Origin: Candidatus Methanophagaceae archaeon
GTDB taxonomy: Archaea; Halobacteriota; Syntropharchaeia; Alkanophagales; Methanospirareceae
Length of the DNA stretch: 64,000 bases
Reading direction: 5' to 3'
Assembly: GCA_003194435.1 (NCBI GenBank)
Contig: PQXC01000001.1
Location: forward strand, 70,991 to 134,990
Both the position numbers and the translations under genes were made by a program. Positions 6,498 through 61,800 of this stretch are shown here, piece after piece. The notes under the pieces were generated by a model. It was not told where the DNA came from, did no database searches, and saw nothing but the letters and a program-made list of their open reading frames with translations. Position 1 is the stretch's first letter. Each line of letters begins with the position of its first letter.

Positions 6498-7052
6498 TCA
6501 CCGGCAATGCAACAGAAGCTCTTTTACCTTATCTATATCCTCGAATATATCAGCCTTTTCCTGCGTGTCCGGCTCCAGAGACAGTTTTCCTTCAAGTGTG
6601 TACAGGTCATCCACCAGCGTTGCAAGCTCATCCACTGCATATGCCCGATTCATGATGGACATCTTCAACACCTGTGCCATAATCATCCCCACACGAGCCT
6701 TAATCCATCTTGTGGAGGTTGGTACTGATTCGCTGTGAGCGATAGGTGGCTGAACTTCTATATCCTCCTGCTCCCTCTCCACTTCCAGCTCATATTTCCT
6801 TATCTCCACCACTTCAAATCCAAAAAGGGCTATATATTGCGAATATAGCTCCTCAAGGTCTTTATTCAGATTCCTCTTCTCATCTGCGTCTTCTAATCGC
6901 TCTATCGTCCTCAAAACCCTGATTTTATGGCGGTACAGAGCCCGAATTTTGTCCTCCGCACCCCACTTCGAGTGGATGATAGAAGGATATACCAGTTCTT
7001 GCAGTGCTCTTATTCTCTTCCTCGGGTCCAGGATAGCAAATCTATCATACAT
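6498..7052 (-). CDS. Hypothetical protein (184 aa).
   Basis: ORF only. Charged and helical composition with no recognisable motif. Confidence 0.35.
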   Translation of the reverse strand: MYDRFAILDPRKRIRALQELVYPSIIHSKWGAEDKIRALYRHKIRVLRTIERLEDADEKRNLNKDLEELYSQYIALFGFEVVEIRKYELEVEREQEDIEVQPPIAHSESVPTSTRWIKARVGMIMAQVLKMSIMNRAYAVDELATLVDDLYTLEGKLSLEPDTQEKADIFEDIDKVKELLLHCR

Positions 7053-7118
7053 TACATACTCAATATAATGAAGGGATATGAGCTTATAAACTTTTCGCCA
7101 TTGCCATTGCCATCACCA

Positions 7119-9419
7119 TCAGTTAGAATCACAGATATAGGGTACTTCTTTCTCTCTGACCTTCTGTCTTATCGGTATAGAGAAATAGAAGCTTGAACCC
7201 TTACCCTGCGCACTCTCCACCCATATCTTACCATTATGTGCCCGTATGATGCCTTTTGCAATTGCCAGTCCCAGACCGGTACCACCCTTTTCCCTGCTCA
7301 TAGAGGCATCTATTTGGGAGAATGGCAGAAACAACTTCTTCTTGCCCTCTTCTGAAATCCCAATCCCAAAATCGGTTACACTGAAAAGAACATTCTCGCC
7401 TTCATGGGCTGTGGAGGTCTCGATGATCACTTCAGCTCCATCAGGTGAGAATTTTATTGCATTATTTATCAAATTACTCATCACCTGTCTCAATCTTTCA
7501 TTATCGCCGATGATGAGAGGCAGTTCTGCCAGTTGTACCTTTAATTTGATTCCTTTCTGCCTGGCGAAAGGTTCCTGCATCTTTATCGCCTCTTTTACTG
7601 CATCATTCAGGTCCATTACCTGAAAAGCCATCTTTATTCGTCCCATTTCTATTCTGGAGATATCAAGGATGTCGTTAATCAACCTATCCAATCTGGCTAA
7701 ATTCCGCAGTATCAGCTCTATACTATCTTTCTGCCGCTGGTTCAGTCTGCCTTTATAACCTTCACGCAGCATTTGCAGCTGTGCTTTCATCGGCGTAAGC
7801 GGGGTTCTCAATTCGTGCGAGGTGATGGAGAGGAATTCGGTCTTTATCCTCGTCACTTCCTGCAGGTCCACCACTTTCATCTCCAGTTCACGGTTCAGTT
7901 TCCGTATCTCCTCTTCCGCTTTCTTTCGCGCTGTTATATCCCTAAAAATCGTTAATTTCGATATACTGCCGTCTATATTCTTTAAAGGCGTCTCAATCAG
8001 GTCGTATATCTTATTCATCCTGCTCGAGTGCCATTCCCACCTCACTGTCTGACCCTTTTCCACAACTTCATGGAGTTTGCACAGCGGGCAGGGCTCATCC
8101 CTGTTATGAAAGACACGATAGCAGATATCCCCCACGCAGTCGCCAAATTCATCACGCAGGACTTTATTCATAAATTCCACTTCATAAGTCCGCGATATCG
8201 CATACACGCCGTCCACCATGCTCTCAAATATCAAATTCAGGTTGTCCCGTTCCTCTTTCACCCGCCTCTCCAATTCTACCTCCTTTGTTATATCCCTGCT
8301 CACTCGAACAGTCCCGATAGGCACACCGTTCTTGTCCCGCAGCAGTGAAGCAGACATGCTGATATGGATTGGTTTGCCATCTTTCCTCAGCACTACTGTT
8401 CGATAATTCCTGATTACCCCCTCACGCTGTACCTGCTCCATTATCCGTTCTGCCTCCTCAGGGTCGAGGAAGAATTTCCTGTTCGACTTCCCTATCACCT
8501 CTTCTGCACGGTAGCCCATGACGCCCTCTGCACCTTTATTCCAGTCCCTCACTATCCCCTCCATGTCCACAACGGTGATTGTATCCGCAGAACTGTCTAT
8601 TATGTTATTCAGATAATCCCTGGTTGCCATCAGTTCGCGTTCCGTGCGTTTCAAATCTGTGATGTCCTTTGATACCACCGTTACAGCAGTTACCATTCCG
8701 GTTTCAGGGTCTCTAACCGGGCTCATGGTCTTTAAGAAGCATCTACCATTCTCATCCCTGTATTCATGCTGTATTGTGGTGCCGGTATCAAAGACGTGTT
8801 TCACTTTCTCTGCGAACCACCGAGACTCTCTGGATGTATGAAAAGCCTGATATGGGCGACCCAGATATTGCTCCCTCGAGAGCCCCAATCGTGATAGATG
8901 CTGTTCATTCATGAATAGATATCTGCAATTCCTGTCTACGAGATAGACGGAATCCCCTGTGGACTGCACGAGTGAGCGATACTTCTCCTCACTCCACCGT
9001 AACTCATCCTCTACTCGCTTCTTATCCTCCTGCAGTTGATAAGCATCATAAGCTCTTTTTACGGTGATAAGCAACTCATCCCTGTTCACGGGTTTCTCGT
9101 TGTGTATATACATATAATGGTATGCACCTGCTTTCAATGCCTCGATCGCATTATCCTTCGATTCGTATGTGGTAACTATAATCACGCACATATCAGGGTT
9201 AAAAGCCTTAAGGTGCTTCATTACCTCTATCCCATTGATGTCCGGGAGTTCCAGGTCGAGTAGACAAACAGGGTACTTCTCTTCGCTGGCAAGTGCCAGT
9301 GCCTCTCTACCACTACCTGCAGTCTTCACCGTGTATCCTTCTTCGGATAGGATGTTTCTCAGCGTAATGCACATATCCGGGTCATCTTCCACGATGAATA
9401 TTGATCTCACTTTTTCCAT
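7119..9419 (-). CDS. Hybrid sensor histidine kinase: N-terminal receiver, PAS domains, then HisKA and HATPase.
   Basis: Start probably at 'MEKVRSIFIVEDD'. Receiver motifs 'IFIVEDD...LLDLELPDINGIEV'. H-box 'ITSHELRTPL'. N-box/G-box 'NLINNAIKFS', 'DFGIGI', 'GGTGLGLAI'. Confidence 0.8.
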   Translation of the reverse strand: MEKVRSIFIVEDDPDMCITLRNILSEEGYTVKTAGSGREALALASEEKYPVCLLDLELPDINGIEVMKHLKAFNPDMCVIIVTTYESKDNAIEALKAGAYHYMYIHNEKPVNRDELLITVKRAYDAYQLQEDKKRVEDELRWSEEKYRSLVQSTGDSVYLVDRNCRYLFMNEQHLSRLGLSREQYLGRPYQAFHTSRESRWFAEKVKHVFDTGTTIQHEYRDENGRCFLKTMSPVRDPETGMVTAVTVVSKDITDLKRTERELMATRDYLNNIIDSSADTITVVDMEGIVRDWNKGAEGVMGYRAEEVIGKSNRKFFLDPEEAERIMEQVQREGVIRNYRTVVLRKDGKPIHISMSASLLRDKNGVPIGTVRVSRDITKEVELERRVKEERDNLNLIFESMVDGVYAISRTYEVEFMNKVLRDEFGDCVGDICYRVFHNRDEPCPLCKLHEVVEKGQTVRWEWHSSRMNKIYDLIETPLKNIDGSISKLTIFRDITARKKAEEEIRKLNRELEMKVVDLQEVTRIKTEFLSITSHELRTPLTPMKAQLQMLREGYKGRLNQRQKDSIELILRNLARLDRLINDILDISRIEMGRIKMAFQVMDLNDAVKEAIKMQEPFARQKGIKLKVQLAELPLIIGDNERLRQVMSNLINNAIKFSPDGAEVIIETSTAHEGENVLFSVTDFGIGISEEGKKKLFLPFSQIDASMSREKGGTGLGLAIAKGIIRAHNGKIWVESAQGKGSSFYFSIPIRQKVREKEVPYICDSN

Positions 9420-11463: not shown

Positions 11464-13188
11464 TTATCTTCTATCTTTTAGCATCTTCATCATCTCCTCT
11501 AACCCTCTCGTATTCACCACATCCTTCGCCTCCAGCCACCCACGCCGTGCAGTCGCCACACCATACTTTATCACATCCCGCATCTGCATCGCGTCATGGG
11601 CGTCCGTAGAGATCGCTATGGGAACACCATAATCCTTCGCCATCCTGCAATGGACATCATTCAAATCCAACCTCTCGGGGAAAGAATTCAACTCCATGAC
11701 CGTGCCCGTATCATGTGCCACTTCCATCAATCGTTCCATATCCACCTCGTATGGCTCCCTCTTGCCCAGCACACGACCCGTTGGATGCGCTATTATATCC
11801 ACATGCGGGTTCTCCATCGCCGTTATTATCCTCTTTGTCATCGTATCCTTATCCTGTGTGAACTTCGAATGTACCGCAGCAACGACCACATCCAGCTCCT
11901 TCAATATCTCATCGGGGAAGTCAAGCGAGAAATCCGACTTTATATCCACCTCCGTAGAAGACAGAACCCTGAAATTGTCAAATGTCGCATTCACTCGTTC
12001 TATCTCCTGCTGCCGCATCCTTAGTTTATCCTCGTTCATACCACCCGCAATGCCAACCGCGGGAGAGTGGTCAGCCACGGCGATATACTCATAGCCAAGC
12101 GCAATAGCAGTCTTCGCCATCTCCTCTATGCTGTTCTTTCCGTCACTCCATTTGGTATGCACGTGCAAATCGCCCCTCAAATCGCTCAGTTCTATCAACT
12201 TCGGTATCCGATTCTCCTTTGCCGCTTCCACTTCGCCACGGTCTTCCCTCAGCTCAGGCGGTATATATGCAAGACCAACACTTTTGAATACATCCTCCTC
12301 ATTCTCACCGCCTATCCGCTCTTCACCGCGAAAGATACCATATTCGTTTATCTTTAAGCCCCGCTTCACACCAAGCTCCCGTATCCTTATATTATGGTGC
12401 TTGGAGCCCGTGAAATAATGGACAGCAGCGCCAAATGACGCTGATTCCACCACTCGCAGGTCCACATCCATACCTTTCAGCACGATTGACGACTTCGTAT
12501 CTCCTTTTGCTATCACATCCTCCACACCCTCCAGGCTGGTAAACGCATCCATCACCTCCGACGGACGCTTCGAGACCACTAATATGTCTATATCACCTAT
12601 TGTCTCACGCATTCTGCGTAAACTGCCGGCAATTGTGATTCGCTCCACCGCATCCAGCTTCTTCAACTCCTTCACTATCGATTCCGCGTATGGAAGCGCC
12701 TTTGACAACAATACACGACCCTGATAACGGCGATATTGCTCTATACCCTTGAGTATGTTCTCTTCCACTTTGCGACCCAGTCCGGGTATCACACCGAGTT
12801 TGTGCGCCTTCGCCGCCGCTTCCAGCTCCTCTATGTTCGTTATTCCGAGCTCTTCATGCAGCTTCGCTATCGTCTTAGGACCCACACCCGGAATCTTCAG
12901 GAGTTCAAGCATGCCGGCTGGTACCTCTTGCTTCAGTTCCCTGTGCTTCTTGCAATCACCGGTCTGTGCGATCTCCACTATCTTCTTCGCTATGCCCTCG
13001 CCAATACCCGGTATCTTCTTTAATTCACTCACACCACCACGTTCCGCAATAACCTTCAGGTCCTGTGTTAACGTCTCTATTGTGCGAGCTGCTCGCCTGT
13101 ATGCCCTTATGCGGAACGGATTCTCACCTTTAATCTCCAGTATGGATGCAATCTCATCAAAGATACGCGCTATATCCAGGTTCACCAT
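11464..13188 (-). CDS. polX: Family X DNA polymerase (PolX) with a C-terminal PHP phosphoesterase domain.
   Basis: HhH motifs 'IPGIGEGIAKKI', 'IPGVGPKTIAKL'. Nucleotidyltransferase 'GSLRRMRETIGDIDILV'. PHP 'DLHVHTKWSDG...VADHS'. The internal Met 'MVNLDIARIF' was chosen as start to avoid overlap with the upstream gene. Confidence 0.85.
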   Translation of the reverse strand: MVNLDIARIFDEIASILEIKGENPFRIRAYRRAARTIETLTQDLKVIAERGGVSELKKIPGIGEGIAKKIVEIAQTGDCKKHRELKQEVPAGMLELLKIPGVGPKTIAKLHEELGITNIEELEAAAKAHKLGVIPGLGRKVEENILKGIEQYRRYQGRVLLSKALPYAESIVKELKKLDAVERITIAGSLRRMRETIGDIDILVVSKRPSEVMDAFTSLEGVEDVIAKGDTKSSIVLKGMDVDLRVVESASFGAAVHYFTGSKHHNIRIRELGVKRGLKINEYGIFRGEERIGGENEEDVFKSVGLAYIPPELREDRGEVEAAKENRIPKLIELSDLRGDLHVHTKWSDGKNSIEEMAKTAIALGYEYIAVADHSPAVGIAGGMNEDKLRMRQQEIERVNATFDNFRVLSSTEVDIKSDFSLDFPDEILKELDVVVAAVHSKFTQDKDTMTKRIITAMENPHVDIIAHPTGRVLGKREPYEVDMERLMEVAHDTGTVMELNSFPERLDLNDVHCRMAKDYGVPIAISTDAHDAMQMRDVIKYGVATARRGWLEAKDVVNTRGLEEMMKMLKDRR

Positions 13189-13207: not shown

Positions 13208-15070
13208 TTATCTCGGTTTCCATCTCTTATCACCGGGTTTTCTATATACTGACTTCAATGGCTCCTCGCGGGTTTCCGGATATTTCAATCTCCCGCCTTT
13301 GAACTTGAAATCGGGCGGTTTCCGCTCCGTCTCTATTAAATCTTTCGTCCTGCCCGCTATCCTGGCTTCTATGTCTTCCGCTTCCTTCTCCACTGCGCTC
13401 TTCGCTATATGCAGGTCGTCTATCTTTATCATCCCCGTTGCTGCTTCCGTTGCTGATATAAAAGCCTGTAGCTTCACACTGAGCGGCTCTATTATTCCCA
13501 CCTGGAACATATCCCTTATGCTCTTATCACGACCCGAGATACCAGCGTTCATATTACCACTGAAATGCTCCGCCCTGAGCCTCGTCAGTGTGTCTATCTG
13601 GTCCATGCCACAGTTCTTCGCTATCGCCCTCGGAATCGTCTCCAGCGCATCTGCGAACGCATCTACCACCAATTGCTCCTTACTCGGTATCCCCCGTGCA
13701 AACTTCCTCAGCCGATGGGCTGATTCAACTTCTACTGCTGCTCCGCCTGGTACCACTCTATTATCCTCGAATAATTGCGCAACTGCGTGTAAAGCGCTTT
13801 TTAGCTCCCCCACTATGCTCTCCAGAACCCTGAGTGAGGTACCCCTTATAACAATCGTTGCAGACTCTTTGCGTGGGCAGTTCTCAAAGAATACGTATTT
13901 GTCCCCTCCTATCTCTCGCTGCGACACTCTACCCGCATAGCCAAACTTGTCCGGGCTTAAGTCACTTACATCCTTAACTATCTTGGCACCCGTAGCGCGT
14001 TCAAGCCGCTCAAGATCAGTTAATTTTACACGCTTTATCAGCATTATTCCCGCATCACGGAACTTCGGCAGTGCATCAGCGTCCACACCCCATCGGCAAC
14101 ATATCACGTTTGCACCGCACTTCACTATCGGGTCTATAAGCTCATCAAAGAGTTTCGCTCTTGTGTCATGGAACTCACGGAGATGCGACGGCTTTGAGAT
14201 TTTCACATGGAAATCGAGTGCACCTAATGTCTCTCCTGCTTTACTTCGCTCTCGGGCAGGCATACCGGTGGGTAACTCTTTCCTGCCTTTTATCTTCGGC
14301 TCCGGGTGCTCAATCGGGAAGTCAAGGAGCGCTATCTTAGCATCTCTCACATCGCTCGGTAGAGCATCCAGTACTTCGCGGTCCACAACTACGCCCTCAA
14401 AGAACCGTGTCTCATTTACTTTGCCACCGCTCTTTGCCTCTATTGCAATATCATCCACATCTATATGCCTGTTCTCGCTCTCGCTTTTGCTTTTGCTCAA
14501 TCGCCTGATGCTCTCTACCACCACATCTGCCAGTATATCCTCGTCACAAAACTCACCCTTCTTAAGCGCGGTCTTTGCTACACGGTGCAGGATCTCAGTG
14601 CCAGCCTCGTCTCTTATATCCACCGTGGTTGCCATCTCCTTCAATGTCTCTTTCACAAATCCAAGTGCACGCTCATAGCCGTCCACCACGATATTTTGAT
14701 GCACCCCCGCTTTCCGTAGCTCGTATCCCCTCCTCACCAGCTCCCCTATCAGAATCATCACCGTGGCTATACCATCACCCACCCGTTCGCCCTGCGTCAG
14801 CCCGGCAGTAATCAATATATCAGCGGTTGGATGTGTGTACCTCAGCTCCTTTATCAGGCTGTAAGCATTACTTGATATAAGGTCTGCAGCTTCTACCTTC
14901 GTTGCTCCCTGGGTTATCAATATCTTGGACCCAAAGGGACCGATTACCGGCTTGAACATATCGGAGAAAGCCGCGCAAACCATCATATTCGTCTCCTGAA
15001 TCTCCTCCGGCGGCACTTCCCCTGGCGGTAACTCATCCTTTATCATCTCTATCCTATCACCATTAACCAA
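13208..15070 (-). CDS. Divergent group II chaperonin (thermosome/CCT family) paralog with an extra basic C-terminal tail.
   Basis: 'VIGPFGSKILI' (vs LGPKGMDKMLV). 'GDGIATVMILIGELV' (vs GDGTTTAVVIAGELL). 'VVPGGAAVE' (vs VVPGGGAVE). 620 aa, ending 'KFKGGRLKYPETREEPLKSVYRKPGDKRWKPR' rather than a GGM tail. Confidence 0.7.
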   Translation of the reverse strand: MVNGDRIEMIKDELPPGEVPPEEIQETNMMVCAAFSDMFKPVIGPFGSKILITQGATKVEAADLISSNAYSLIKELRYTHPTADILITAGLTQGERVGDGIATVMILIGELVRRGYELRKAGVHQNIVVDGYERALGFVKETLKEMATTVDIRDEAGTEILHRVAKTALKKGEFCDEDILADVVVESIRRLSKSKSESENRHIDVDDIAIEAKSGGKVNETRFFEGVVVDREVLDALPSDVRDAKIALLDFPIEHPEPKIKGRKELPTGMPARERSKAGETLGALDFHVKISKPSHLREFHDTRAKLFDELIDPIVKCGANVICCRWGVDADALPKFRDAGIMLIKRVKLTDLERLERATGAKIVKDVSDLSPDKFGYAGRVSQREIGGDKYVFFENCPRKESATIVIRGTSLRVLESIVGELKSALHAVAQLFEDNRVVPGGAAVEVESAHRLRKFARGIPSKEQLVVDAFADALETIPRAIAKNCGMDQIDTLTRLRAEHFSGNMNAGISGRDKSIRDMFQVGIIEPLSVKLQAFISATEAATGMIKIDDLHIAKSAVEKEAEDIEARIAGRTKDLIETERKPPDFKFKGGRLKYPETREEPLKSVYRKPGDKRWKPR

Positions 15071-15158: not shown

Positions 15159-15821
15159 ATGCTTTACTTTTCTTCACATATCAGTGAGCATAGTGAAGAT
15201 AAATTGAAAGAAATCTTTAGCATAGGCGTGCCCTTTTATACACATTTTCGTGCTAATGTAAATAAAACGATGAGAATAACGAGAAGAATAAGAAGAATAA
15301 GAAGAATAGATATAAAGAAAATAGAAAGATGGGAGCTCGTACATTCGATACTCTTTGGCACCGGGATTCTAACATTTGGATTCTTTGACGGGTTTACAGC
15401 CATGTTGATGATGGAGAAGTATGGTATAAGTGTGGAATCAAATCCATTGTGGCGGGGGATTATGTATAGCCATGGACCTGTAGTTTTTCTTCTATTCAAG
15501 CTATTCGCGGCGGTAATGGTGTTCTCAGTACCCTTCTTCTTATATAGACAGGGGGAACAGCACTGGATGACCGCGGGTTTCATGTCGGTCTTTATGATTG
15601 GTGGGATACTGGGGGCAATAGATAACTATTTGTATCTGAGGAACGGGGTTGTATATCTGCAACCAGAGATTGTATTGGCTATGGTACTGGTAATGACGCT
15701 GATAGCATTGCATATCGGGGATATACTGGACTCAAATATGGAGAGAGAGAAACTATTCAAGATTTCTGATAAGAGATGGGCTGAGCTGAAGAGTGAAATC
15801 GGCTATCCAGGTAATTTTTAA
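15159..15821 (+). CDS. Hypothetical integral membrane protein (4-5 TM). True start may be the internal Met at ~15267.
   Basis: Hydrophobic segments 'ILFGTGILTFGFF', 'VVFLLFKLFAAVMVFSVPFF', 'FMSVFMIGGILGAI', 'IVLAMVLVMTLIALHI'. Basic 'RRIRRIRRI' stretch near the N-terminus. Confidence 0.4.
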   Translation: MLYFSSHISEHSEDKLKEIFSIGVPFYTHFRANVNKTMRITRRIRRIRRIDIKKIERWELVHSILFGTGILTFGFFDGFTAMLMMEKYGISVESNPLWRGIMYSHGPVVFLLFKLFAAVMVFSVPFFLYRQGEQHWMTAGFMSVFMIGGILGAIDNYLYLRNGVVYLQPEIVLAMVLVMTLIALHIGDILDSNMEREKLFKISDKRWAELKSEIGYPGNF

Positions 15822-15869: not shown

Positions 15870-16658
15870 TTAATTAACATTCTCTTTCTCACCACCTCCG
15901 CCTTCGTATAGTTCCTCGATCAAATCAGCGTACTCCACAACCAGCGATTTACTAAGCTGCGTTATGAATGAAGTCTCTTCTACCGACAATCCTTTCTTAA
16001 GGCAGAATCGCACACGGTCGAAATCGCCGAGATATCTATCGACGGCGCTGGGACTGTGATGAGTTTCCCTTGCGATGTCCGGCGTAGCTTTTTTAGCCCG
16101 GAGCGATTTTTCACAGATGATCTTTTTATGCGTTGTGCTTCTACCCAGGTCATGTACGGTGCCCCTGCGTGGCAGCACCACGTTGTTCTCACGTTCGTAT
16201 TCAGTGATATTCTCGTGAATAGTCATGTTGGAGCACGAGAGGATGAGTGATAGGTCAGTCTCAGCCAGCGTTCCACCTTGCTTGTCCGCTTCACGTAGCA
16301 TCCTTGCAATAGCACTCTTTCGAATCTCCTTCTGTGGAACGCTCTCCGCCCTCTTCTTGATGTCTTCATAAGTGACCGCCGATAGGACAACGGGACGCAA
16401 TCGGAGATTCTTCATGCACTTCCCATACCCTCCTTTCTCCTCTTTTGCCACTGCGAACCAGAGCATCTGCCCCATTCTGAGATTCGTTATCGGTGGATAG
16501 TACTGCTCAACGATGGACTTCAGTTCCTTGACCAGCAGTCCGATGACCTTCGGTCCGCCCAACTTCGGGAATTCAGCCGATATGAAGCTGGATACCGCGG
16601 TTTCAAACGTTTTATCCAGCAGCGGTGCATAGATGCTCTGCCGTGTATTCATGCTCAA
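15870..16658 (-). CDS. DUF1670-like HTH-containing protein (paralog 1 of a tandem pair).
   Basis: 262 aa. HTH-like 'GGTLAETDLSLILSCSNMTIHENI'. C-terminal block 'HSPSAVDRYLGDFDRVRFCLKKGLSVEETSFITQLS' parallels the upstream paralog. 4-nt overlap with it. Confidence 0.45.
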   Translation of the reverse strand: MSMNTRQSIYAPLLDKTFETAVSSFISAEFPKLGGPKVIGLLVKELKSIVEQYYPPITNLRMGQMLWFAVAKEEKGGYGKCMKNLRLRPVVLSAVTYEDIKKRAESVPQKEIRKSAIARMLREADKQGGTLAETDLSLILSCSNMTIHENITEYERENNVVLPRRGTVHDLGRSTTHKKIICEKSLRAKKATPDIARETHHSPSAVDRYLGDFDRVRFCLKKGLSVEETSFITQLSKSLVVEYADLIEELYEGGGGEKENVN

Positions 16659-17482
16659 TTTGTCGCCCCCCTTTTACACGGCTCACGATCCACGGAGTTC
16701 AACGCCAGTATCTCGTCTAATCGGTCTTTGTACGCCCGGTCACCTTTGTATTTGCGGTATAACGCCTGGTAATCACGTGTCAATCGCTCTGAGACCTGGA
16801 CGAGAAAAGCGATTTCTTTCGTTGTGTATCCCTTTTCTGTAAGATACGCAACACGGGAGAAAGTCAGGATATAGCGCTTGATCGCCGTTAAAGAGTGTTT
16901 CAGTCTCCTTTCAATCTCAGTGTAGGTTCTTCGCTCCATGAAAAGCCTGACGGCTTCTACCTTGTGTGATACGCCTGGACCGATGTCTTTTTGCTGCCCT
17001 CGTGTTGGAACGATCACGCCGCGCTTTGCAAGTGCCTTAATGTCTCGCCTTACCGTTCTGACACCGCAATTCAAGAGCTTTGCTGCAATGTCCTCCTGTG
17101 TGAGCGAGACTCCCTGGTCCCAAGCTTCATGTGCAACTCTGGCGAGCCTTGCCTGACGAAGAGCAGCAAGCCCATACTTACTCCGGATTTCTTCATCTTC
17201 TTTCCCTGCATCGAGCGTTACCACCGCCGTTTTCATCTCACACTTGGCTAATGGCTTCCCTGCAGGTTCTGATGCGGCAATTCCCAGAACCTTCAACTGC
17301 CCCACATTCATCACGGTCGGATTGCTCTGTTCTGGTATGAATACCGATTTCGCTGTCTCTAATATGGCGTTGGATACGAACGGTGGGCATTCGTATCCCT
17401 GTTCCACCATATTGACGAACATCTGGTCGAGCGTTTTTGCATTTAACCTCTCAGATGCACTTCTATTCTTATCCCCTTTCAT
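16655..17482 (-). CDS. DUF1670-like HTH-containing protein (paralog 2).
   Basis: 275 aa. HTH-like 'LTQEDIAAKLLNCGVRTVRRDIKALAKRG'. C-terminal 'HSLTAIKRYILTFSRVAYLTEKGYTTKEIAFLVQVS' is collinear with paralog 1. Confidence 0.45.
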   Translation of the reverse strand: MKGDKNRSASERLNAKTLDQMFVNMVEQGYECPPFVSNAILETAKSVFIPEQSNPTVMNVGQLKVLGIAASEPAGKPLAKCEMKTAVVTLDAGKEDEEIRSKYGLAALRQARLARVAHEAWDQGVSLTQEDIAAKLLNCGVRTVRRDIKALAKRGVIVPTRGQQKDIGPGVSHKVEAVRLFMERRTYTEIERRLKHSLTAIKRYILTFSRVAYLTEKGYTTKEIAFLVQVSERLTRDYQALYRKYKGDRAYKDRLDEILALNSVDREPCKRGATN

Positions 17483-20406: not shown

Positions 20407-21780
20407 TCACCTTTGAATTGAATACGTTTCAGTGTCCGTTCTGCCTTTCAGAGCATTCATCAACTCAGTATTTAGCAGTTCTCTTTTAATACCGAGTTTG
20501 TGCGAGAAATAGAAGCGGATTGCCTTTGATACCTTCTCGTATGCGTCCTTCTCTCTGCCATTCCTGAATAAGTGCTCTGCTTCTTCAATAAATCTTCTTG
20601 CCTCGCGCACGTAGTCAACACTTTGTGCAGACTCTACGGCAATGGTGGGCTGTGGCTGTATCTCTTTTCGCCTCGCTTTTTTAAGATATTTATCAAAGAT
20701 AAACCACCCGGTTGCAATTACTCCTGTGAGGGGTATGAGGAGAAGTAGCCACCAGGGACTGCCGCGCTGCTCTTCCTTATGCCCATGCTCGGATATGGTT
20801 TCCAGAGTAACATTCTGAATAGTTCCGTTGATATAATCCGCTTTGATTCTTCGCTCAGCACCTGTGCTCTCATTCCTGTAAGGTATAGTTACCTGTGTAT
20901 GGTTCTGAGATACGAGATTAAAAGAAGCTGGTGTCTGATTAAACCCTGCATTCCTTAATTGTTTATCGTATTTCACGAAATCAGGGTTTTTGGCAAGCTC
21001 CTTCCGTATTTGCTCTTCTTGCTCCTTATGCTGCTGCATCTCCTTTTCCAGCTCTTTTTTCAATTTACCCCCATTCTGACTGATTTGATTGTTCGTTATG
21101 CGCTTTTCTATACTCTCTTGATGCTGCTGCCCGCCTGAGCCTGATTGCGATTGTTGTTTGTTGCCATAGCTGTGAGTGGAACTGCCAATCTGGATATTGA
21201 AGGAGCCACCGGAGGAGGAATAAGAAGTGGAATGGATATAAGTGCCATTGCATTGATAAATAGTGGTAATGCCCTGCGTCTGCTGACCCTGCAGCTGCTG
21301 CTGGCTGTTATTAGCCTTCACCTGAATGTCCAGCGTGTTTGATTCTACCGTTTCGCGTTTGCCCGTTTCTGGATTGGTGTAAGTTATCTTTGCCGCGTCC
21401 AGTGTGTATTTACCGGGTTTAAATGGCACTATCGGGTCGCTGTATGCAAATACCGATTCTTCCTTTGCGGGCAGTGTATATTCAAGGCATCTTATGTCCA
21501 GCCCGTTATTTCCGATAACGTTCCGATCCACAATTCGAAGAGGTATCGGCTGCTTAAAGGGGTTCTTAAACTGAAGCTTAACGATAACCTTATCTCCGAC
21601 TTTTATGTTATCCGCATTTTCAACGACTTTATGTACGACAAGCGTCTTCGTCGCTGCTGCTGCCGCTACCGCTGACGTTGATGCTGCCGTGACACCGAAT
21701 AGAAATGCAGAAATCAGGAGCAAGACTATCGCCTTCTTCCTTTTGCTTCTCTCTATGCTTATGCCCATCTCATATCTCAT
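20407..21780 (-). CDS. Membrane-anchored protein with an N-terminal signal peptide, a Gln/Ser-rich low-complexity region, a single TM helix near the C-terminus and a DUF4129-like cytoplasmic tail (BatD-like).
   Basis: Start probably at 'MRYEMGISIERSKRKKAIVLLLISAFLFGV', which overlaps the batA stop (ATGA). TM 'WWLLLLIPLTGVIATGWFIF'. Assignment is by architecture only. Confidence 0.4.
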   Translation of the reverse strand: MRYEMGISIERSKRKKAIVLLLISAFLFGVTAASTSAVAAAAATKTLVVHKVVENADNIKVGDKVIVKLQFKNPFKQPIPLRIVDRNVIGNNGLDIRCLEYTLPAKEESVFAYSDPIVPFKPGKYTLDAAKITYTNPETGKRETVESNTLDIQVKANNSQQQLQGQQTQGITTIYQCNGTYIHSTSYSSSGGSFNIQIGSSTHSYGNKQQSQSGSGGQQHQESIEKRITNNQISQNGGKLKKELEKEMQQHKEQEEQIRKELAKNPDFVKYDKQLRNAGFNQTPASFNLVSQNHTQVTIPYRNESTGAERRIKADYINGTIQNVTLETISEHGHKEEQRGSPWWLLLLIPLTGVIATGWFIFDKYLKKARRKEIQPQPTIAVESAQSVDYVREARRFIEEAEHLFRNGREKDAYEKVSKAIRFYFSHKLGIKRELLNTELMNALKGRTDTETYSIQR

Positions 21781-22751
21781 ACAACCACCCTGTACTTGCC
21801 ATAGATAATATAAATATTCACTAATAACATTATAAAAGTTGCGATAAAGAACCAATCCTTTATGCTGGTCTCTTCCCACTCTCGCTTTATGTGCCCGCTG
21901 ATACGTGCGTAAATCTCATCCAGCGTCTTTTCATTCACTGACTTGTAGTATTTCCCGCCGGTATCCGCGGCGATTTTCTTCAACGTCTGTTCATCAAGCT
22001 CGGCATACTGCGGATTGCCAAAGAGGTCGTAGCCAATGACCACCGGTTTCTCAGAGCCCAGTCCAACGGTATAAACCTGTACGCCATTTGTTTTCGCGAA
22101 CTGAATTGCCTCCTGTGGACTCACAACACCTGCATTGTTCACCCCGTCACTCAGTAAAATAACTACTTTCTTCTTGTTTGGGATAGAAGTAGCCATGTCA
22201 ATAGCGAGGGCGAGACCATCACCGATAGCAGTTCGTCCTGTTCGCGGTTCTATCGCCTCTAATTTCTCTATTGCCTTATCCTTAAAAGGGGTGAGATAAC
22301 AGGCTGTTGTCGCACCGGATTCGAATACAACGATACCCACATTATCTTTCGGTTTCAAGCTCTTTATAAGCGTTTTGGCTGCTGCTTTCGCGGCTTCTAA
22401 TCTCGTTGGCTTATAATCGGTTGCCTGCATACTCCCGGAATCATCAATTGCCAGGACCACGTTAACGCCCTTCTTAGCGCGCTTGAGAGGAATCATCGGG
22501 TCGGCAAGACCAACGATAATCAATGCCATAGCGATGACAAGGATGATAAAAGGCAGATGAGCCCTGAATTTGGTGCTACGTTTGGTTCTATTACTTGTGG
22601 CTGAAGCTTCTGCTTCTTTTACAATACTGAAGGTACTGAATTTCAGAGCCGCTTCTTTACGCTTCTTGCAATAAATCCGGTAAAAATAGTATAGCAGGGG
22701 GATAATCCCCAGAAATAGCAACACCCACGGCTCTCCAAAACTCATGCCCAT
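21777..22751 (-). CDS. von Willebrand factor A domain membrane protein (BatA-like).
   Basis: N-terminal TM pair, then the vWA MIDAS 'VVLAIDDSGSM'. 'SDGVNNAG'. C-terminal TM 'FFIATFIMLLVNIYIIY'. Confidence 0.75.
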   Translation of the reverse strand: MGMSFGEPWVLLFLGIIPLLYYFYRIYCKKRKEAALKFSTFSIVKEAEASATSNRTKRSTKFRAHLPFIILVIAMALIIVGLADPMIPLKRAKKGVNVVLAIDDSGSMQATDYKPTRLEAAKAAAKTLIKSLKPKDNVGIVVFESGATTACYLTPFKDKAIEKLEAIEPRTGRTAIGDGLALAIDMATSIPNKKKVVILLSDGVNNAGVVSPQEAIQFAKTNGVQVYTVGLGSEKPVVIGYDLFGNPQYAELDEQTLKKIAADTGGKYYKSVNEKTLDEIYARISGHIKREWEETSIKDWFFIATFIMLLVNIYIIYGKYRVVV

Positions 22752-34459: not shown

Positions 34460-36790
34460 ATGTTTGATTATATTGTGGTGGTGGTCGGTGAAGAGCATGA
34501 GGTAAAGCGATTGGAGCATTTCCCATGGCATGAAGGTGTACTCCAGAACTCTATTCTCATACCCGTCTCGGAAGGTAGCTGGAACGGTCCAGCGGGCAAT
34601 GGGCTTGGTACTTTATTCGCGATAAAAAACGCATCTAACGCAGCGGGAAAAGAACTTGTTGAGGAAGTGAAACAGGGTAAGAGTGTCCTTATCGTGCATA
34701 CAGCGGGTAAAGGCACAAGGAACGTACTGACGAGGACCTGTAAGGAGAAAGCATTCATAGATGTTCCTGGTTTGACCATACTTGAGGGTGTGATAAAGCA
34801 ATTTCAGCGGTTCTCTATCCCACACAGGATAATGGTTACATGGGGTGACCAGTTCCTCTTCATCGCTGATACTCCTGAATCCTTAATTGAATGCGCACAT
34901 TCTACGCATGTCATGCTCTTTGGCTTGAAATCAGAGTTTACAGAGGAGATTGTCTCCAAATATGGTATTCAGATAGTTAGATGTGAAGATAAAGGTAAAG
35001 GCTGTGAACTGCTTGATTTTGACGATACACGGAACTATGAAGTGGTGAAGAGTAAGATGGAGAGGTACAGAGGCAGTGAGGTGCTGTTGAATCTGGGGTT
35101 ATTCACGCTGAGCGGAGTTTTGACCGAACGGCTGCTGGATGCTTTCAGCGATAGGCTTGAAGAGAGGGCCGGGGAGTTCAATTCTGATGAGTTATGGCAG
35201 TTATGGTGCTCTCCAGACTCTGTTACTACTAACAAATGGCTACGGGAGCGTGCAGAACGGTTAAAGCGGGAGATGACGATGACATCCGACCTGAACTTGA
35301 TAAAGAGCTTTGCAATAAGTGAACAAAGCATCTGGCTCGATTTCGGGACGAATAAGAGCTATTACAGGAATATGATGCGACTTTTGTCAGGAGGGGCTGA
35401 GGCTGTGCAATTAAGGAGATTCCTGAATGTCGAGCTCCGCTCCGACACTGACGGCTGCGAGATTCTGGATTCAATCTATGTGAATTCCGGAATAGAGAGA
35501 GGGCGGATAAAGAGGAGTGTGGTATCGAATACAACTGCGAAAGCCGCATTACTCGAAGATGCTTGCGTGCTCAATTCCCGATTGAACAGAATAAACGGTA
35601 AAAACTGTGTTGTTTATAACCTCGTTGATAGCGATTCGGTGGAGCTTACTGACTGTGTGCTGGTGGATGTCTTTCATCCAGCCAGGGGAAGGATAAGACT
35701 CAGGTTCCCAATAGGTAAGGAGAGCAGACCTAAGGAGGAGTGGTGGTCCTCACGCCTGCCCGGTAACGAATATACATTGAGCGAAGTTGCAGCTATGACC
35801 AGGGGTATTACTGATGAAGAGATGCAGTCCACCAGGCTAAGACATGCACGGCTGGCAGATGCGAGGGTGAAAGAGAGGGAAAGGGTGAGGGATATGATTG
35901 AGCACCCGATGAAGCTCAAGCCCCTCATCATAAACAAGCCCTGGGGCTATGAGTTATGGTGTGCCTCACCACGGAACTATATCGAAGGTGAGGAATTTAC
36001 GCTCTGTGAGCTCAATACTTTCTTCTCAGAAGCGATATTCGGCATGAAGATGGAGGAATTCCCGCTGATAGTGAAGATAATAAAAGCAGATGAGAACCTT
36101 TCGGTACAGGTACATCCTGATGACGGGTATGCACGCAAGATGGGTGATGTAATGGGCAAGGAAGAGGCGTGGTATGTTCTCGAAGCGAAAGAGGATGCGA
36201 GGATTTATTTAGGATTCCGGGATTCCCTACGCAGTGGTGAATTCCTGGAACTGGTAAAAAGAGGCAAGATATTGAACTACATGAATTCGTTTTATGCTCA
36301 ACCCGGCGATATCTACCACATCCCTGCCGGTGTCATACATGCCCTGGGCGCGGGTACAAAGGTATATGAAGTGAGTACCGCGTCAGAAAGGACATTCAGA
36401 GTCTATGATTATGGCAGGGGCAGGGAGCTACATCTGAATGATGCTATGAATGTCATTAGACTTGAGGTGCTACGGGGATTGAAGCATGGAGGAGGGCATC
36501 TGCAGGGTAAACATCTGGATTTGAGGCTTATCTCTGTTCATAATAGTAATGGTAATGGTATGAATCCGGGCACAGACATGGGTATGGACATAAAGAATGC
36601 GGGTGTCCTCACCTGTGTAAGGGGGCAGGTAACTCTGGTCGGTGATGCAAAGGTAAAACTGCCATTAAAGACCTTCGAGACCGCACTCGTGCCTGTACCT
36701 GTAACTGCGAGTGGTGGTAGTGCCAGTGGCAGTGGCATCAGACTGGAAGGCGAAGGTGACCTTATATACGCCAGTTTTATTAGCTCTTAG
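34460..36790 (+). CDS. Two-domain protein: N-terminal sugar-nucleotide pyrophosphorylase-like domain (~480 aa) fused to a C-terminal class I phosphomannose isomerase cupin (ManA type).
   Basis: N-terminal 'GNGLGTLF' and 'HTAGKGTRN' resemble nucleotidyltransferase G-x-G-T-R loops. C-terminal 'LKPLIINKPWGYELW...FPLIVKIIKADENLSVQVHPDDGYA...GKEEAWYVLEA' matches the B. subtilis-type ManA signature (QVHPDD...GKTE.WYI). Confidence 0.6.
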   Translation: MFDYIVVVVGEEHEVKRLEHFPWHEGVLQNSILIPVSEGSWNGPAGNGLGTLFAIKNASNAAGKELVEEVKQGKSVLIVHTAGKGTRNVLTRTCKEKAFIDVPGLTILEGVIKQFQRFSIPHRIMVTWGDQFLFIADTPESLIECAHSTHVMLFGLKSEFTEEIVSKYGIQIVRCEDKGKGCELLDFDDTRNYEVVKSKMERYRGSEVLLNLGLFTLSGVLTERLLDAFSDRLEERAGEFNSDELWQLWCSPDSVTTNKWLRERAERLKREMTMTSDLNLIKSFAISEQSIWLDFGTNKSYYRNMMRLLSGGAEAVQLRRFLNVELRSDTDGCEILDSIYVNSGIERGRIKRSVVSNTTAKAALLEDACVLNSRLNRINGKNCVVYNLVDSDSVELTDCVLVDVFHPARGRIRLRFPIGKESRPKEEWWSSRLPGNEYTLSEVAAMTRGITDEEMQSTRLRHARLADARVKERERVRDMIEHPMKLKPLIINKPWGYELWCASPRNYIEGEEFTLCELNTFFSEAIFGMKMEEFPLIVKIIKADENLSVQVHPDDGYARKMGDVMGKEEAWYVLEAKEDARIYLGFRDSLRSGEFLELVKRGKILNYMNSFYAQPGDIYHIPAGVIHALGAGTKVYEVSTASERTFRVYDYGRGRELHLNDAMNVIRLEVLRGLKHGGGHLQGKHLDLRLISVHNSNGNGMNPGTDMGMDIKNAGVLTCVRGQVTLVGDAKVKLPLKTFETALVPVPVTASGGSASGSGIRLEGEGDLIYASFISS

Positions 36791-58846: not shown

Positions 58847-61800
58847 CTACATGAACTCATCCAGTGCCTTCTGCTTATCAGCAGTAGGGAAGAGCAACTC
58901 AACGTCTCGCTTCAGCAGTTCCAATCGCTGTCTCGTGTATTTACTCAGGTGATACTCATCAGCTATGCGCAGTGATTCCGATAGATATTTCTTTATTCCC
59001 GCAGCGTGCACCGTAGGCAGTAATTTCCCGCCGCATCGGCTGCACCTGCCCGTAAGTGGCACTCTCCGGTATTTCGCATTGCAGCGACTGCACCGCACCC
59101 TCTGAGTGCCGAACGCGCGGAGATTGCCCTTTATATCGCGCAGAAAATGGTTCTTTATCACCGTCTCCGCAACTTCACGTGCATCCACCGCTCTTATAAG
59201 TCTTGCCAGCCTCAATTGTGCATCTACCTTATCCATCATCGTACCCAGCGTCTTGTAGAGCGAGTTCAAAGGACCTGCTGCAATCTCCGTTGTATCATGC
59301 GTGTAGCCGAACCCGTAAACATCGCCCGGGTGGTCTATTCGCGTGGCTGCCGTCTCTACTGCGACCTCTTTTGGATGCTTACCCAACTCGGCGGCGAGAT
59401 AGAAGTCCAGAGGGTATTCCCACATGATAGAGAGGTTATGTGCCTCTTTATCCACCTCCTTCGGGTTTATTACCGGTATGAGAACTAAAGGTGCATCCAT
59501 TCTGCCCCCGATCTTATCGGGCAAGAAAGATAGCGAGAAGTTCAGTAGCGCATCCAGCAGCAGAATTATTGAGTCCTCATCGCCGTCACAGTTGCCGGTC
59601 AGCACAGAGCCATTTGCCAAAAAATTGTGATGCCCTTCTACTTCTATATCGTATAAGAACCCAAATTCCGACTTAACCGGTTCTATCTCCTTTATTTCGT
59701 CAAGAACAGCATCGCCGAACGAAGAGATACGAGGTGCTTTCTCTTTTGCCAATACTGCTCTCAATGCTTCGTTCTTTCTTTTCTCTACGAAACCGATTGC
59801 CTCACCAAATTTTCGCGCATATCGCGAACTTATAAAGAGATAATGAAGGTCAAAGACCGGTAATTCCTCTCCACTTTTACCTTTACCCTTTCGCTCGTAG
59901 AATCGTCTGGCAACACCTCCGGCAGCTTTTGTCTCTCTTTTCAAGCGGCAGAATATACCAAATCGGAGCAACTGCAATCCGATGTCCCGCAGTAGCTTCT
60001 CGCTCACTGAGCAACAGGAGACCACAAGTCTGTTTCTTTCCACAGAGCCATCACCTGAGAAATAGGCACTCAGCAACCACTTCATCTTATCGCGAGGAAT
60101 ATTCCACAGTAACGGTGGAATTCGCTTATCTTTTGCTCCTTTGCCCGTACCCAGAACATCCACAAATAGATGGTATATCAATCGGTTTGATATGACGAGC
60201 ACTCCCTCTCCCTCTTTTATGCTCGGTGAAAAACCAAAAACATCTTTGACGCAGTTCACCATGTCATCTAAGAGCTTCTTTTCCCGCGATGAGATGCTGA
60301 CCTGATAGAATTCCTTTTCAGTGCTTCTTGCATAGCCTTCTGCGAGATAATAGCCAATAAGCCGCATGAAAGGCTCGTCAAGCCTGATCATTCGCGGAAT
60401 TGCCGTATTACCTCTTTTAACACCGAGCTGGCATTCACGCGGGATTGCAGTCCAATCGCGGTGCGACCGCTTGAGTAACGAATGCAAAATAGGTAGCGGG
60501 ATGCTATCACGATAAACATAATTTGAAAATGTCTTTTTCCTGATTCCCATCTGCTCGGCAGCGCGTTTGAGCCCTCCCAGGTCTTTTATTAGCTCTTCTA
60601 CTACTGCTCGCACTCCTCTTACCATCACGTCCCGATAAAGGTCATCAAAGTGCAAAAATTCTTTCAGAAGGTCTATTTCTGCTCTCTCCTCTTCTTTAAG
60701 CTCGAGCTTTTCCGGCACTAATAGCATATCTTTATCATCCAGTTCCAGAACTTTTTTGTACTGGATTTTACCGTTTGCGTTTGCGTTTGTGTTTGCGTTG
60801 GACCATACCGTAGTTCGGTGCTCGGGTGACGCGACGAATTCTCTGCCCGACCTGGTTCTCACACGCACGAGATGTGCCGGTGCAGGTGTTTTAATCACTG
60901 ATTTGATCTCCTTCAGTTCAAACTGCCCATTCTCTGGATTCAATGCATACGTCTTAATTCCTTCAATTGTTCTTCGTGTTGTACCAAAATCATCAACAAC
61001 CTCTTCATGTGCGTTTTCGCCATTACTATTATACAGCGACTCCAGGTCTATACTTTTTAATCCCCCGGCAGAGTCCGTGACCAGAACTTCGGTATTTGGC
61101 GTCAAACAGTTCCTTCGCTTCGCTGCATGGAAGAAAGGATGTGCATAACAGGCAGAGGCACGCGTGAATCCTATTATCCTGCCCAGTATTCCTGCGGAGG
61201 TGTGTGGTGCCAGTCCAAGCACAAACTGCCCGATCAGGTCCTCCTTAGTTCTTACATTGTAATAGCGTGGTATTTGATAGAACTTCTCCAGCAGCTCGTC
61301 CAGGAACTTCGTAACACGGATGAGATAAGGAACGGCATTAGCAGAGATGATGATATCCTGTTGCTTCAACTCCACTATCTGCGTATCGCTTCTCAGCTCC
61401 TCACCGTTTATATCATGCAAATAGCCAAGCTCTCGTGCTCGTTCAACGCTTAATCCTATCTCACGGAGCTTGAAATGCGTTAATGGTAAATTAGTGAAGT
61501 CGTATCTTATCGTGCCATCTTTATAGACAAAGACGTCATGTTTCGCCCTTAATATGCCCTTAGCAAGATGTTCAGGCACTTTGTTGCCCGAGATGAGTCC
61601 CGTTACACATTTAACATCATGCTTCGTCAATTCGTGCTCATCACCGAGCCTCTTTATTGCATCATGATAGAACTGGTAGAGGTCTATACTCATACTCCGC
61701 CTGTTATTGTTACTGCTCCTGCTGTTGCTTCTGCTACTCCCCCCATGGGTCTTGAGATTGGAGGAGCCACATTTATCGCATCTGGAATAGCAAGATAGTA

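Follow-up and report, generated by a model that had tools for sequence, protein, structure and literature searches.

Within the 64,000-nucleotide stretch of contig PQXC01000001.1 analysed here (the window), which comes from a Candidatus Methanophagaceae archaeon, an open reading frame (ORF) of 620 codons, open throughout in the window's ORF list, occupies 13208..15070 on the minus strand and encodes a divergent chaperonin paralog to which we give the working name ThsX. We report that ThsX belongs to a separate clade of group II chaperonin paralogs in which both catalytic aspartates have been replaced, and that distant members of this clade are encoded beside genes for the activation of methyl-coenzyme M reductase (MCR). 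The assembly and activation of MCR, and of alkyl-coenzyme M reductase (ACR), are an open problem in ANME-1 and the alkane-oxidising archaea (modified F430, operons without mcrD), and this gap in our understanding of maturation limits how far they can be produced heterologously for the bioconversion of methane and alkanes.

The TTG at 15070 is the ORF-maximal start only. In alignments the N-termini of homologs match M9 of the 620-codon ORF (MIKDELPPG), which is the ATG at 15046; 9 nt ahead of this codon stands a Shine-Dalgarno-like GGTGAT. Because of these two features we place the start there, and the true coding sequence (CDS) is probably 13208..15046 (-), encoding 612 aa plus stop. Compared with a 92%-identical homolog (locus L081), the ratio of nonsynonymous to synonymous substitution (dN/dS) is 0.11 for the core, 0.05 for an insertion in the lid, 0.11 for a linker and 0.18 for the C-terminal tail, and in more distant comparisons, where synonymous sites are saturated, nonsynonymous divergence (pN) is still 0.13-0.3. 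On these values the tail is translated and under selection. A decaying pseudogene, or a tail that is an ORF-extension artefact of a lost stop codon (a doubt raised in a preliminary description of the gene from its letters alone), might be suspected from the score of ThsX under a curated thermosome cutoff (403 vs 671 bits, TIGR02339) and from the differing tail lengths of ThsX sub-clades; but nothing interrupts the ORF, each segment, with the tail included, has a dN/dS of 0.05-0.18, tail motifs are kept across sequences that are 64-92% identical, and more than 90 intact homologs come from many samples. The per-segment dN/dS and the conservation of motifs rule this reading out, and we give it practically no credence: the tail is conserved coding sequence.

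An altered nucleotide pocket in a chaperonin fold

That the protein is group II chaperonin-like along its whole length, as the preliminary description had it, is borne out by a Pfam PF00118 (Cpn60_TCP1) match over the full length of ThsX (414 bits vs a cutoff of 34, E=8.4e-124) and by thermosome and Mm-cpn matches in the PDB that span residues 23-560 with 32-35% identity (about 33% for the best solved relatives). An AlphaFold2 (AF2) model of ThsX (pLDDT 80, pTM 0.74) gives TM scores of 0.87-0.93 against thermosome/Mm-cpn structures in Foldseek. Pfam match and model agree on the three-domain fold of group II, and the built-in helical-protrusion lid is present, residues 286-317 aligning to Mm-cpn 247-278 with a helix predicted at 294-317. 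It is firmly supported that ThsX is a functional group II chaperonin paralog, specific to its lineage, which has been stripped of its hydrolysis residues and has acquired new conserved peptides. Judged by its sequence it is not a canonical thermosome subunit, as the defining catalytic features fail: the P-loop reads GDGIAT where canonical group II proteins have GDGTT[TS], and Asn68 and Ser425 stand at the positions of the two catalytic Asp. Of the NCBIfam thermosome profiles, ThsX remains below the cutoffs of TIGR02339 (403 bits, cutoff 671) and thermosome_alpha (422 bits, cutoff 450) and marginally reaches that of thermosome_beta (405.8 bits, cutoff 400); public annotations call members of the family ‘thermosome subunit alpha’, ‘TCP-1/cpn60 family protein’ or ‘GroEL’.

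The changes in the pocket are not products of gap placement. HMMER and MAFFT agree on one ungapped register, anchored on a downstream HP, in which S66-S-N-A-Y-S71 of ThsX aligns to T58-N-D-G-V-T63 of Mm-cpn, and both align G98-D-G-I-A-T103 to the P-loop G90-D-G-T-T-T95; N68 maps to D60, I101/A102 to T93/T94 and S425 to D386. The recovery of canonical motifs by re-alignment, which the preliminary description had named as the way in which its reading of GDGTTT as GDGIAT and of TNDGVT as SSNAYS might fail, is ruled out: two independent aligners keep both motifs altered with the same gap placement, and the catalytic Asp of the latter motif is an Asn. Beyond these two changes, both of which stand, we find the more telling Ser425 in place of D386, GGAA in place of GGGA, a 25-aa lid insert and the replacement of the N-terminal strand.

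We counted residues at these positions in a family alignment of 94 members of the ThsX clade and 131 canonical thermosomes. The D60 column holds Asp in 131/131 canonical sequences and in 0/94 of the ThsX clade (N 81, S 5, K 5, H 1, T 1); the D386 column holds Asp in 131/131 and, within the clade, Ser in 84 and Asn in 10 of the 94. The first P-loop Thr, found in 131/131 canonical sequences, is present in 1/93 clade members, and the G444 column, Gly in 131/131 canonical sequences, is Ala in 25 and Gly in 69 of the clade. P45, D99, G442 and G443 are invariant. ThsX keeps most of the pocket: the GP and GGG loops, Asp99 as Mg ligand, the third P-loop Thr and (in the ANME-1 form) the sensing-loop Lys.

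From the structure of Ch-CPN, a group III chaperonin, activation of the attacking water has been assigned to the two Asp, and binding of the beta and gamma phosphates to the Thr residues of the P-loop (PMC5635000). The Mm-cpn mutant D386A binds ATP, does not hydrolyse it and stays open (PMC5019054), and the single mutants D386A or D373A abolish or nearly abolish hydrolysis (PMC5019054, PMC5635000). As both Asp and two P-loop Thr are replaced, ThsX is therefore most likely a pseudo-ATPase with a chaperonin fold; because it has kept Asp99 along with the GP and GGG loops, its binding of nucleotide may persist. An ATPase-impaired or specialised subunit, or a co-opted scaffold, is what the preliminary description had suggested, and the loss of Asp throughout the clade supports this as a prediction. 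The alternative is that ThsX is still an active if unusual ATP-driven chaperonin which uses other catalytic residues, such as a divergent stress isoform, and this would be in keeping with a largely intact pocket (GP loop, Asp99, GGG loop, third P-loop Thr) and with strong purifying selection across the whole protein. We consider it improbable, as both water-activating Asp are replaced in all clade members and the first P-loop Thr in all but 1/93, when the loss of one Asp is already enough to stop, or nearly stop, hydrolysis in the studied enzymes.

Other chaperonin-like proteins also lack the D386-equivalent Asp. The metagenomic proteins P0121 (1057 aa) and P0122 (1047 aa) each carry two chaperonin units in one polypeptide, one of which (P0121b and P0122a) is without this Asp, and it is missing too from P0227, P0240, P0148, P0141, P0129 and other long-branch metagenomic thermosome-like proteins. 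Hydrolysis may have been lost repeatedly among archaeal chaperonin paralogs.

Relatives of ThsX and their gene neighbourhoods

Database searches and genome scans, in which counts are lower bounds and the distribution is indicative only, gave at least about 95 relatives that share the features of ThsX. Among the matches listed, those of ANME-1/Methanophagales form a dense set (58-99% identity, 585-622 aa); the other hosts, at 38-56% identity, are Ca. Methanoxibalbensis, ‘Methanospirareceae’, Ca. Syntrophoarchaeum (the S. caldarius protein OFV67701 is a family member), metagenome-assembled genomes (MAGs) of Syntropharchaeia and unclassified ‘Halobacteriota’ MAGs, with a few that are obviously mis-binned. 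Several taxonomic labels of MAGs are clearly unreliable (e.g. ‘Desulfobacteria’, ‘Bathyarchaeia’). As an indication, then, the family is confined, among these matches, to ANME-1, Syntrophoarchaeum and related archaea.

In an unrooted neighbour-joining (NJ) tree with archaeal thermosomes, the comparison that the preliminary description had left to phylogeny, ThsX falls in a separate clade that is monophyletic in 99/100 bootstraps, and profile scores set its members (at least 635 bits) apart from canonical sequences (at most 528). Canonical thermosomes, the presence of which elsewhere in the genome had also been left to be seen, co-exist with ThsX in ANME-1 (L037, L003, L008), with intact motifs and Gly/Met/Pro-rich tails; the 64-kb window itself holds no canonical thermosome gene elsewhere. 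At two loci the canonical gene (TNDGVT, GDGTTT and catalytic Asp) lies convergent, tail-to-tail, beside ThsX (L003:12318-13823 (-), L008:6329-7789 (-)).

McrC, Mmp3/7/17 and A2 belong to the experimentally defined MCR activation complex (PMC12176620; PMC9584954). ANME-1 and alkane oxidisers have mcrBGA operons without mcrD and an mcrC at a separate locus, and McrD, the proposed MCR assembly chaperone, is missing from them (PMC9584954). At the deep loci L011, L089, L091, L093, L095, L096, L097 and L176, ThsX lies beside genes of MCR activation, with McrC and A2 scoring above curated cutoffs. In lineage A (L091, L096, L089, L097 and L011) the genes of the cluster are, in this order, a NifH/CfbC-like Fe protein, McrC (271 bits vs a cutoff of 213.5), ThsX, a Cys-rich 134-aa ORF, A2 (634 bits vs 517) and a second A2-like ATPase. 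In lineage B (L093), McrC (252 bits) overlaps the start of ThsX and HypA/C/F lie ahead of McrC. Lineage C is 38% identical to the query ThsX: in L095 the order is A2, ThsX and a NifH-like gene, convergent with mmp15-mmp5-mmp6-mmp7-mmp17-mmp3 and mcrA, and in L176 Mmp8, an unannotated 318-aa ORF, A2 (662 bits) and a 50-aa ORF (zf-FCS-like) precede ThsX. The gene order of lineages A/B differs from that of C, and the MCR linkage holds down to 38% identity; that it is kept across such deep divergence despite the different arrangement argues that the family's ancestor already had a functional association of this kind. The A2 proteins so linked are most similar to those of Syntrophoarchaeum, Alkanophaga, Helarchaeota and Hadarchaea, and are thus of the alkane-oxidiser type; a ‘tar biofilm’ MAG lineage is placed near Syntropharchaeia by its A2 protein. 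The literature that we searched on the thermosome and ANME-1, on MCR activation and in a 2026 review of Nif-like systems has no chaperonin in such a context, and no link between ThsX and MCR activation is mentioned in the papers checked.

Some neighbours in these clusters are of interest in themselves. The Cys-rich ORF between ThsX and A2 (L091:9639-10043, L089:9636-10037, L097:6408-6806) has no Pfam or NCBIfam match, and the second, divergent A2-like protein that follows A2 is a double-ABC ATPase (L091:11745-13430). Directly upstream of McrC and ThsX in lineage B, L093:2609-7413 encodes CobW/HypB-like, HypF, HypC and HypA proteins (nickel insertion/hydrogenase maturation); a setting of nickel cofactors may be hinted at here. 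Right after ThsX in L176 comes the beginning of a second thermosome-like ORF, which the end of the contig truncates (L176:5885-6178).

Clade-specific elements and the local context of the window

ThsX also departs from canonical thermosomes at its N-terminus, in its lid and in its C-terminal tail; the coordinates of these elements, and of those discussed above, are given in Table 1.

Table 1. Coordinates of ThsX, its sequence elements and the adjacent PolX gene in the window
Feature	Position	Strand	Basis
ThsX, probable CDS	13208..15046	-	ORF; homolog N-termini at M9; GGTGAT element; Pfam Cpn60_TCP1 E=8.4e-124; AF2/Foldseek; dN/dS 0.11 vs L081
Clade-specific N-terminal motif ELPPGEVPPEEIQE, residues 13-26, standing in for the canonical ‘PVLILKEGTxR’ strand	14993..15034	-	Alignments; pLDDT <50 for residues 1-16
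SSNAYS, residues 66-71, for TNDG[AV]T; N68 for Mm-cpn D60; preceded by the 4-residue stem-loop insertion	14858..14875	-	Alignments, column counts
Degenerate P-loop GDGIAT, residues 98-103; Asp99 kept, Thr1 = Ile, Thr2 = Ala, Thr3 kept	14762..14779	-	Alignments; role of Thr, PMC5635000
Lid-tip insertion of ~25 aa, residues 259-285, KIKGRKELPTGMPARERSKAGETLGAL	14216..14296	-	Alignment; dN/dS 0.05; low pLDDT at 261-265 and 274-286
Ser425 codon at the intermediate-domain catalytic Asp (Mm-cpn D386, Ch-CPN D373)	13796..13798	-	Residue alignment to 5w74, 9rwp
GGAAVE, residues 442-447, for GGGAxE; third Gly = Ala only in the query's sub-clade	13730..13747	-	Alignment, column counts
Acidic helical linker, residues 556-585, AKSAVEKEAEDIEARIAGRTKDLIETERKP	13316..13405	-	dN/dS 0.11; DSSP helices 553-583
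C-terminal peptide PDFKFKGGRLKY, residues 586-597	13280..13315	-	Alignments; extreme C-terminus in deep members
ANME-1-specific tail extension, residues 598-620	13211..13279	-	dN/dS 0.18 vs L081
PolX, with domains HhH, pol-beta thumb/palm and PHP; downstream of ThsX after 19 nt	11464..13188	-	Pfam; neighbour, probably outside the system

The N-terminus of ThsX is Pro/Glu-rich and its stem loop is 4 residues longer than the canonical one; the N-terminal strand and the stem loop are the builders of the intra-ring beta-sheet, and both are altered. This bears on the main alternative to a role in MCR activation, which is that ThsX serves as a non-catalytic regulatory subunit within hetero-oligomeric thermosome rings, tuning their cooperativity or client range in general proteostasis and having no particular connection with MCR. 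It is established that thermosomes can be hetero-oligomeric and that ATP is used unequally within CCT. Complexes of Sulfolobus thermosome subunits have been described (PMC6420498). A place in mixed rings would suit the overall fold of ThsX and its C-terminal strand IDDLHIAK, both of which are kept, the co-existence of canonical thermosome genes in ANME-1 (tail-to-tail with ThsX in L003 and L008) and the second thermosome-like ORF just after ThsX in L176. Yet the elements of the intra-ring sheet are remodelled, with a Pro/Glu-rich segment for the N-terminal strand and 4 more residues in the stem loop; the hetero-oligomer subunits that we retrieved all keep both catalytic Asp (131/131); and the repeated linkage to McrC, A2 and NifH-like genes would be left unexplained. 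On balance we think this alternative rather unlikely, and of all the alternatives it is the one most to be reckoned with.

The lid-tip insert, of consensus KGRKELPTGxxARERSKAGETLGAL, splits the HMMER match, which passes from ThsX 258 to 286 where Mm-cpn passes from 244 to 247. It is kept across ANME-1 members, shorter in P0077-81 and absent from the deepest members. The tail comprises 65 residues (556-620) after IDDLHIAK, the last equatorial strand. The preliminary description had seen a Lys/Arg/Pro-rich tail of ~60 aa: its length and reality stand, while the basic composition is that of the last ~35 residues only, the first ~30 being the acidic helical linker. ANME-1 proteins have ~15 aa more of this post-equatorial linker than the deep members do. 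Only the deepest branch (P0123/P0275) is without the motif PxF[KR][FY]KGGR[IL]KY, which every other ThsX member contains or has as its ending. Within A1, G593 and Y597 do not vary and R594 hardly varies. In the extension that follows, KSVYR (nt 13241-13255) is kept in loci that are 64-92% identical, and the ending KPGDKRWKPR is confined to the query's sub-clade. ANME-1 acquired the lid insert and the extension with KSVYR later.

A C-terminal proteasome-docking motif of the HbYX type was considered and dropped, because the penultimate-Tyr rule is broken (a few members end in ...SVYR, most in ...KY or ...YRED) and because chaperonin C-termini point into the cavity; the termini of group II chaperonins lie in the central cavity.

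PolX follows ThsX on the same strand, as the preliminary description had noted, with a spacer of 19 nt. The connection that this implied does not extend to the family. In a comparison of about 25 neighbourhoods the pair recurs at L081-L083 (92% identical) and is absent from 12 other ANME-1 loci; at 77% identity and below the neighbours of ThsX differ, with TtuA and ClC/CBS upstream and FeoAB or unrelated genes downstream. PolX as the family-level context of ThsX is ruled out by this limit of at least 92% identity, and the association is probably recent and incidental. It could still be argued that ThsX works with PolX in DNA repair, its basic tail binding DNA or the whole protein being a dedicated PolX chaperone, for which the shared strand, the short spacer, the persistence of the pair in L081-L083 and the Lys/Arg-rich last ~35 residues might speak. 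We find this very improbable, since PolX lies next to ThsX only where the homologs reach 92% identity or more, with other neighbours in its place at 77% or less, and since the RWKPR extension is limited to that same sub-clade, the family-defining features being much older.

Upstream of ThsX, several ANME-1 lineages conserve a gene for a TtuA-like tRNA thiolase together with a ClC channel/CBS gene (L084:6673-7864, L086:5041-7869, L090:5036-7872). Probably this locus is the ancestral one in ANME-1, and the window's arrangement with PolX would be derived from it. In L087 a Cas12f1/TnpB-like gene (6846-7994) ends 7 nt ahead of the paralog P0079. Just upstream of ThsX in the window lie a DUF5658 membrane protein gene (15159-15821 (+)) and two tandem DUF1670 genes with helix-turn-helix motifs (15870-17482 (-)); DUF5658 was considered as a partner and set aside as a coincidence, with a weak match near L089 and none in L091 or other loci. 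Elsewhere in the window, the large subunit of DNA polymerase D (DP2) is encoded by a 1605-aa ORF that is split by an intein with a LAGLIDADG domain (58847-63664 (-)), and two large ORFs, of 776 aa (34460-36790 (+)) and 490 aa (20407-21879 (-)), have no Pfam match.

A possible role in MCR/ACR biogenesis and its parallels

A ThsX that binds nucleotide could nonetheless not be expected to drive the ATP-powered lid-closure cycle and, if hydrolysis is indeed lost, would be a holdase, scaffold or adaptor that works through binding, independently of ATP hydrolysis. Its candidate interaction sites are the C-terminal PxF[KR][FY]KGGR[IL]KY peptide and the Pro/Glu-rich N-terminus, together with, in ANME-1, the lid-tip insert and KSVYR. 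Because the mcr/acr operons of its hosts are without mcrD, and because of the gene context in the deep branches, we take methyl/alkyl-coenzyme M reductase and its activation and assembly machinery to be the likely client or partner. ThsX might hold or present the apo- or inactive enzyme to McrC, A2 and the Fe-protein homolog, and may so fill the role of the McrD that is missing from these lineages; between McrD and ThsX there is no relationship of sequence or fold.

We hold the balance to be even for the combined proposal of a hydrolysis-dead ThsX with a binding or scaffold role and the MCR/ACR machinery as its likely client or partner. The more specific proposal, that ThsX is an ATP-hydrolysis-independent, chaperonin-like part of MCR/ACR biogenesis or activation in Syntropharchaeia (ANME-1 and the multi-carbon alkane oxidisers), we put forward tentatively, as possible but less than probable. 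The reality of the gene, its fold, the loss of motifs, the clade, the purifying selection and the gene context of the homologs are shown directly. For the ANME-1 protein of the window, the lack of ATPase activity, the holdase or scaffold mode and the tie to MCR are what we infer, the last by homology to distant members only.

Several points weigh against such a role. By tblastn, McrC, A2, NifH-like and Mmp genes are found neither in the window nor in ~13 ANME-1 loci, and there is no MCR-related neighbour in the Syntrophoarchaeum-type loci (L092, L098, L099) or in L094, L087 and L010; the link comes from relatives that are 38-46% identical, since when the ANME-1 ThsX has gained insertions and could have changed function. 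The papers on MCR activation that we searched mention no chaperonin or thermosome in the purified complexes. The tree is of the NJ kind only, unrooted and susceptible to long-branch effects, with the ThsX clade on a long branch, and the taxonomic distribution is that of the matches listed. Finally, the Ser or Asn at the catalytic positions might support residual hydrolysis. For the open problem of MCR/ACR assembly and activation, a conserved chaperonin paralog that is restricted to these lineages, has lost ATP hydrolysis and was ancestrally encoded among McrC, A2 and a NifH-like gene would nevertheless offer a concrete candidate.

With canonical thermosomes such as Mm-cpn of Methanococcus maripaludis and the alpha and beta subunits of T. 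acidophilum, ThsX shares the three-domain fold, the helical lid, the Mg-binding Asp, the GP and GGG loops and the C-terminal strand. It differs from them in the loss of both catalytic Asp and of two P-loop Thr, in its replaced N-terminal strand and its stem loop lengthened by 4 aa, in the 25-aa lid-tip insert, in a 65-aa tail with basic/aromatic motifs that is neither Gly/Met- nor Glu/Lys-rich, and in forming a separate long-branch clade below the TIGR02339 and thermosome_alpha cutoffs. Methanosarcina acetivorans, which belongs to the Halobacteriota, has additional thermosome subunits, 4 and 5 (Maeder et al. 2005, as cited in PMC6420498), and from that citation these too appear to be divergent paralogs of group II. 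No Methanosarcina sequence is found among the members of the ThsX clade, in the matches listed of three database searches or in a scan of species-representative genomes; orthology with subunits 4/5 is set aside on the ground that no Methanosarcina sequence lies near the clade, a judgement made without direct alignment.

Group III Ch-CPN of Carboxydothermus hydrogenoformans resembles ThsX in being thermosome-like yet divergent, with changes to both the lid and the region that senses nucleotide. However, group III is bacterial, keeps the catalytic Asp D56 and D373 and GDGTTT and has deletions in the lid, whereas ThsX is archaeal, has lost the Asp pair and has a lengthened lid (PMC5635000); group III is also without the nucleotide-sensing loop, the Lys of which is present in the ANME-1 form of ThsX. 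No group III chain was found among the best 60 PDB sequence matches of ThsX, and its assignment to group III is ruled out by lid, sensing loop, Asp pair and host alike. In its mode of working ThsX would be most like the engineered Mm-cpn D386A, which lacks one of the same catalytic Asp, so that binding of ATP without hydrolysis and an open state would be expected of ThsX too; in ThsX, by comparison, the loss is natural and ancient, takes in the other Asp as well as Thr residues of the P-loop, and is accompanied by a gain of new conserved motifs.

In concept there may be a eukaryotic parallel. BBS6/MKKS, BBS10 and BBS12 are CCT-derived assembly factors with family-specific insertions and a degenerate ATP site, and serve one complex alongside the canonical chaperonin. 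ThsX resembles them as a group II paralog with a degenerate ATP site that exists beside a canonical chaperonin, and differs in that there is no orthology: its origin is archaeal and independent, its insertions are others and its client is putative. Even apart from any link to MCR, ThsX would illustrate how an archaeal chaperonin has become a pseudo-ATPase in nature, as a counterpart to these eukaryotic chaperonin-like proteins, and would be useful for learning which parts of the group II cycle are dispensable.

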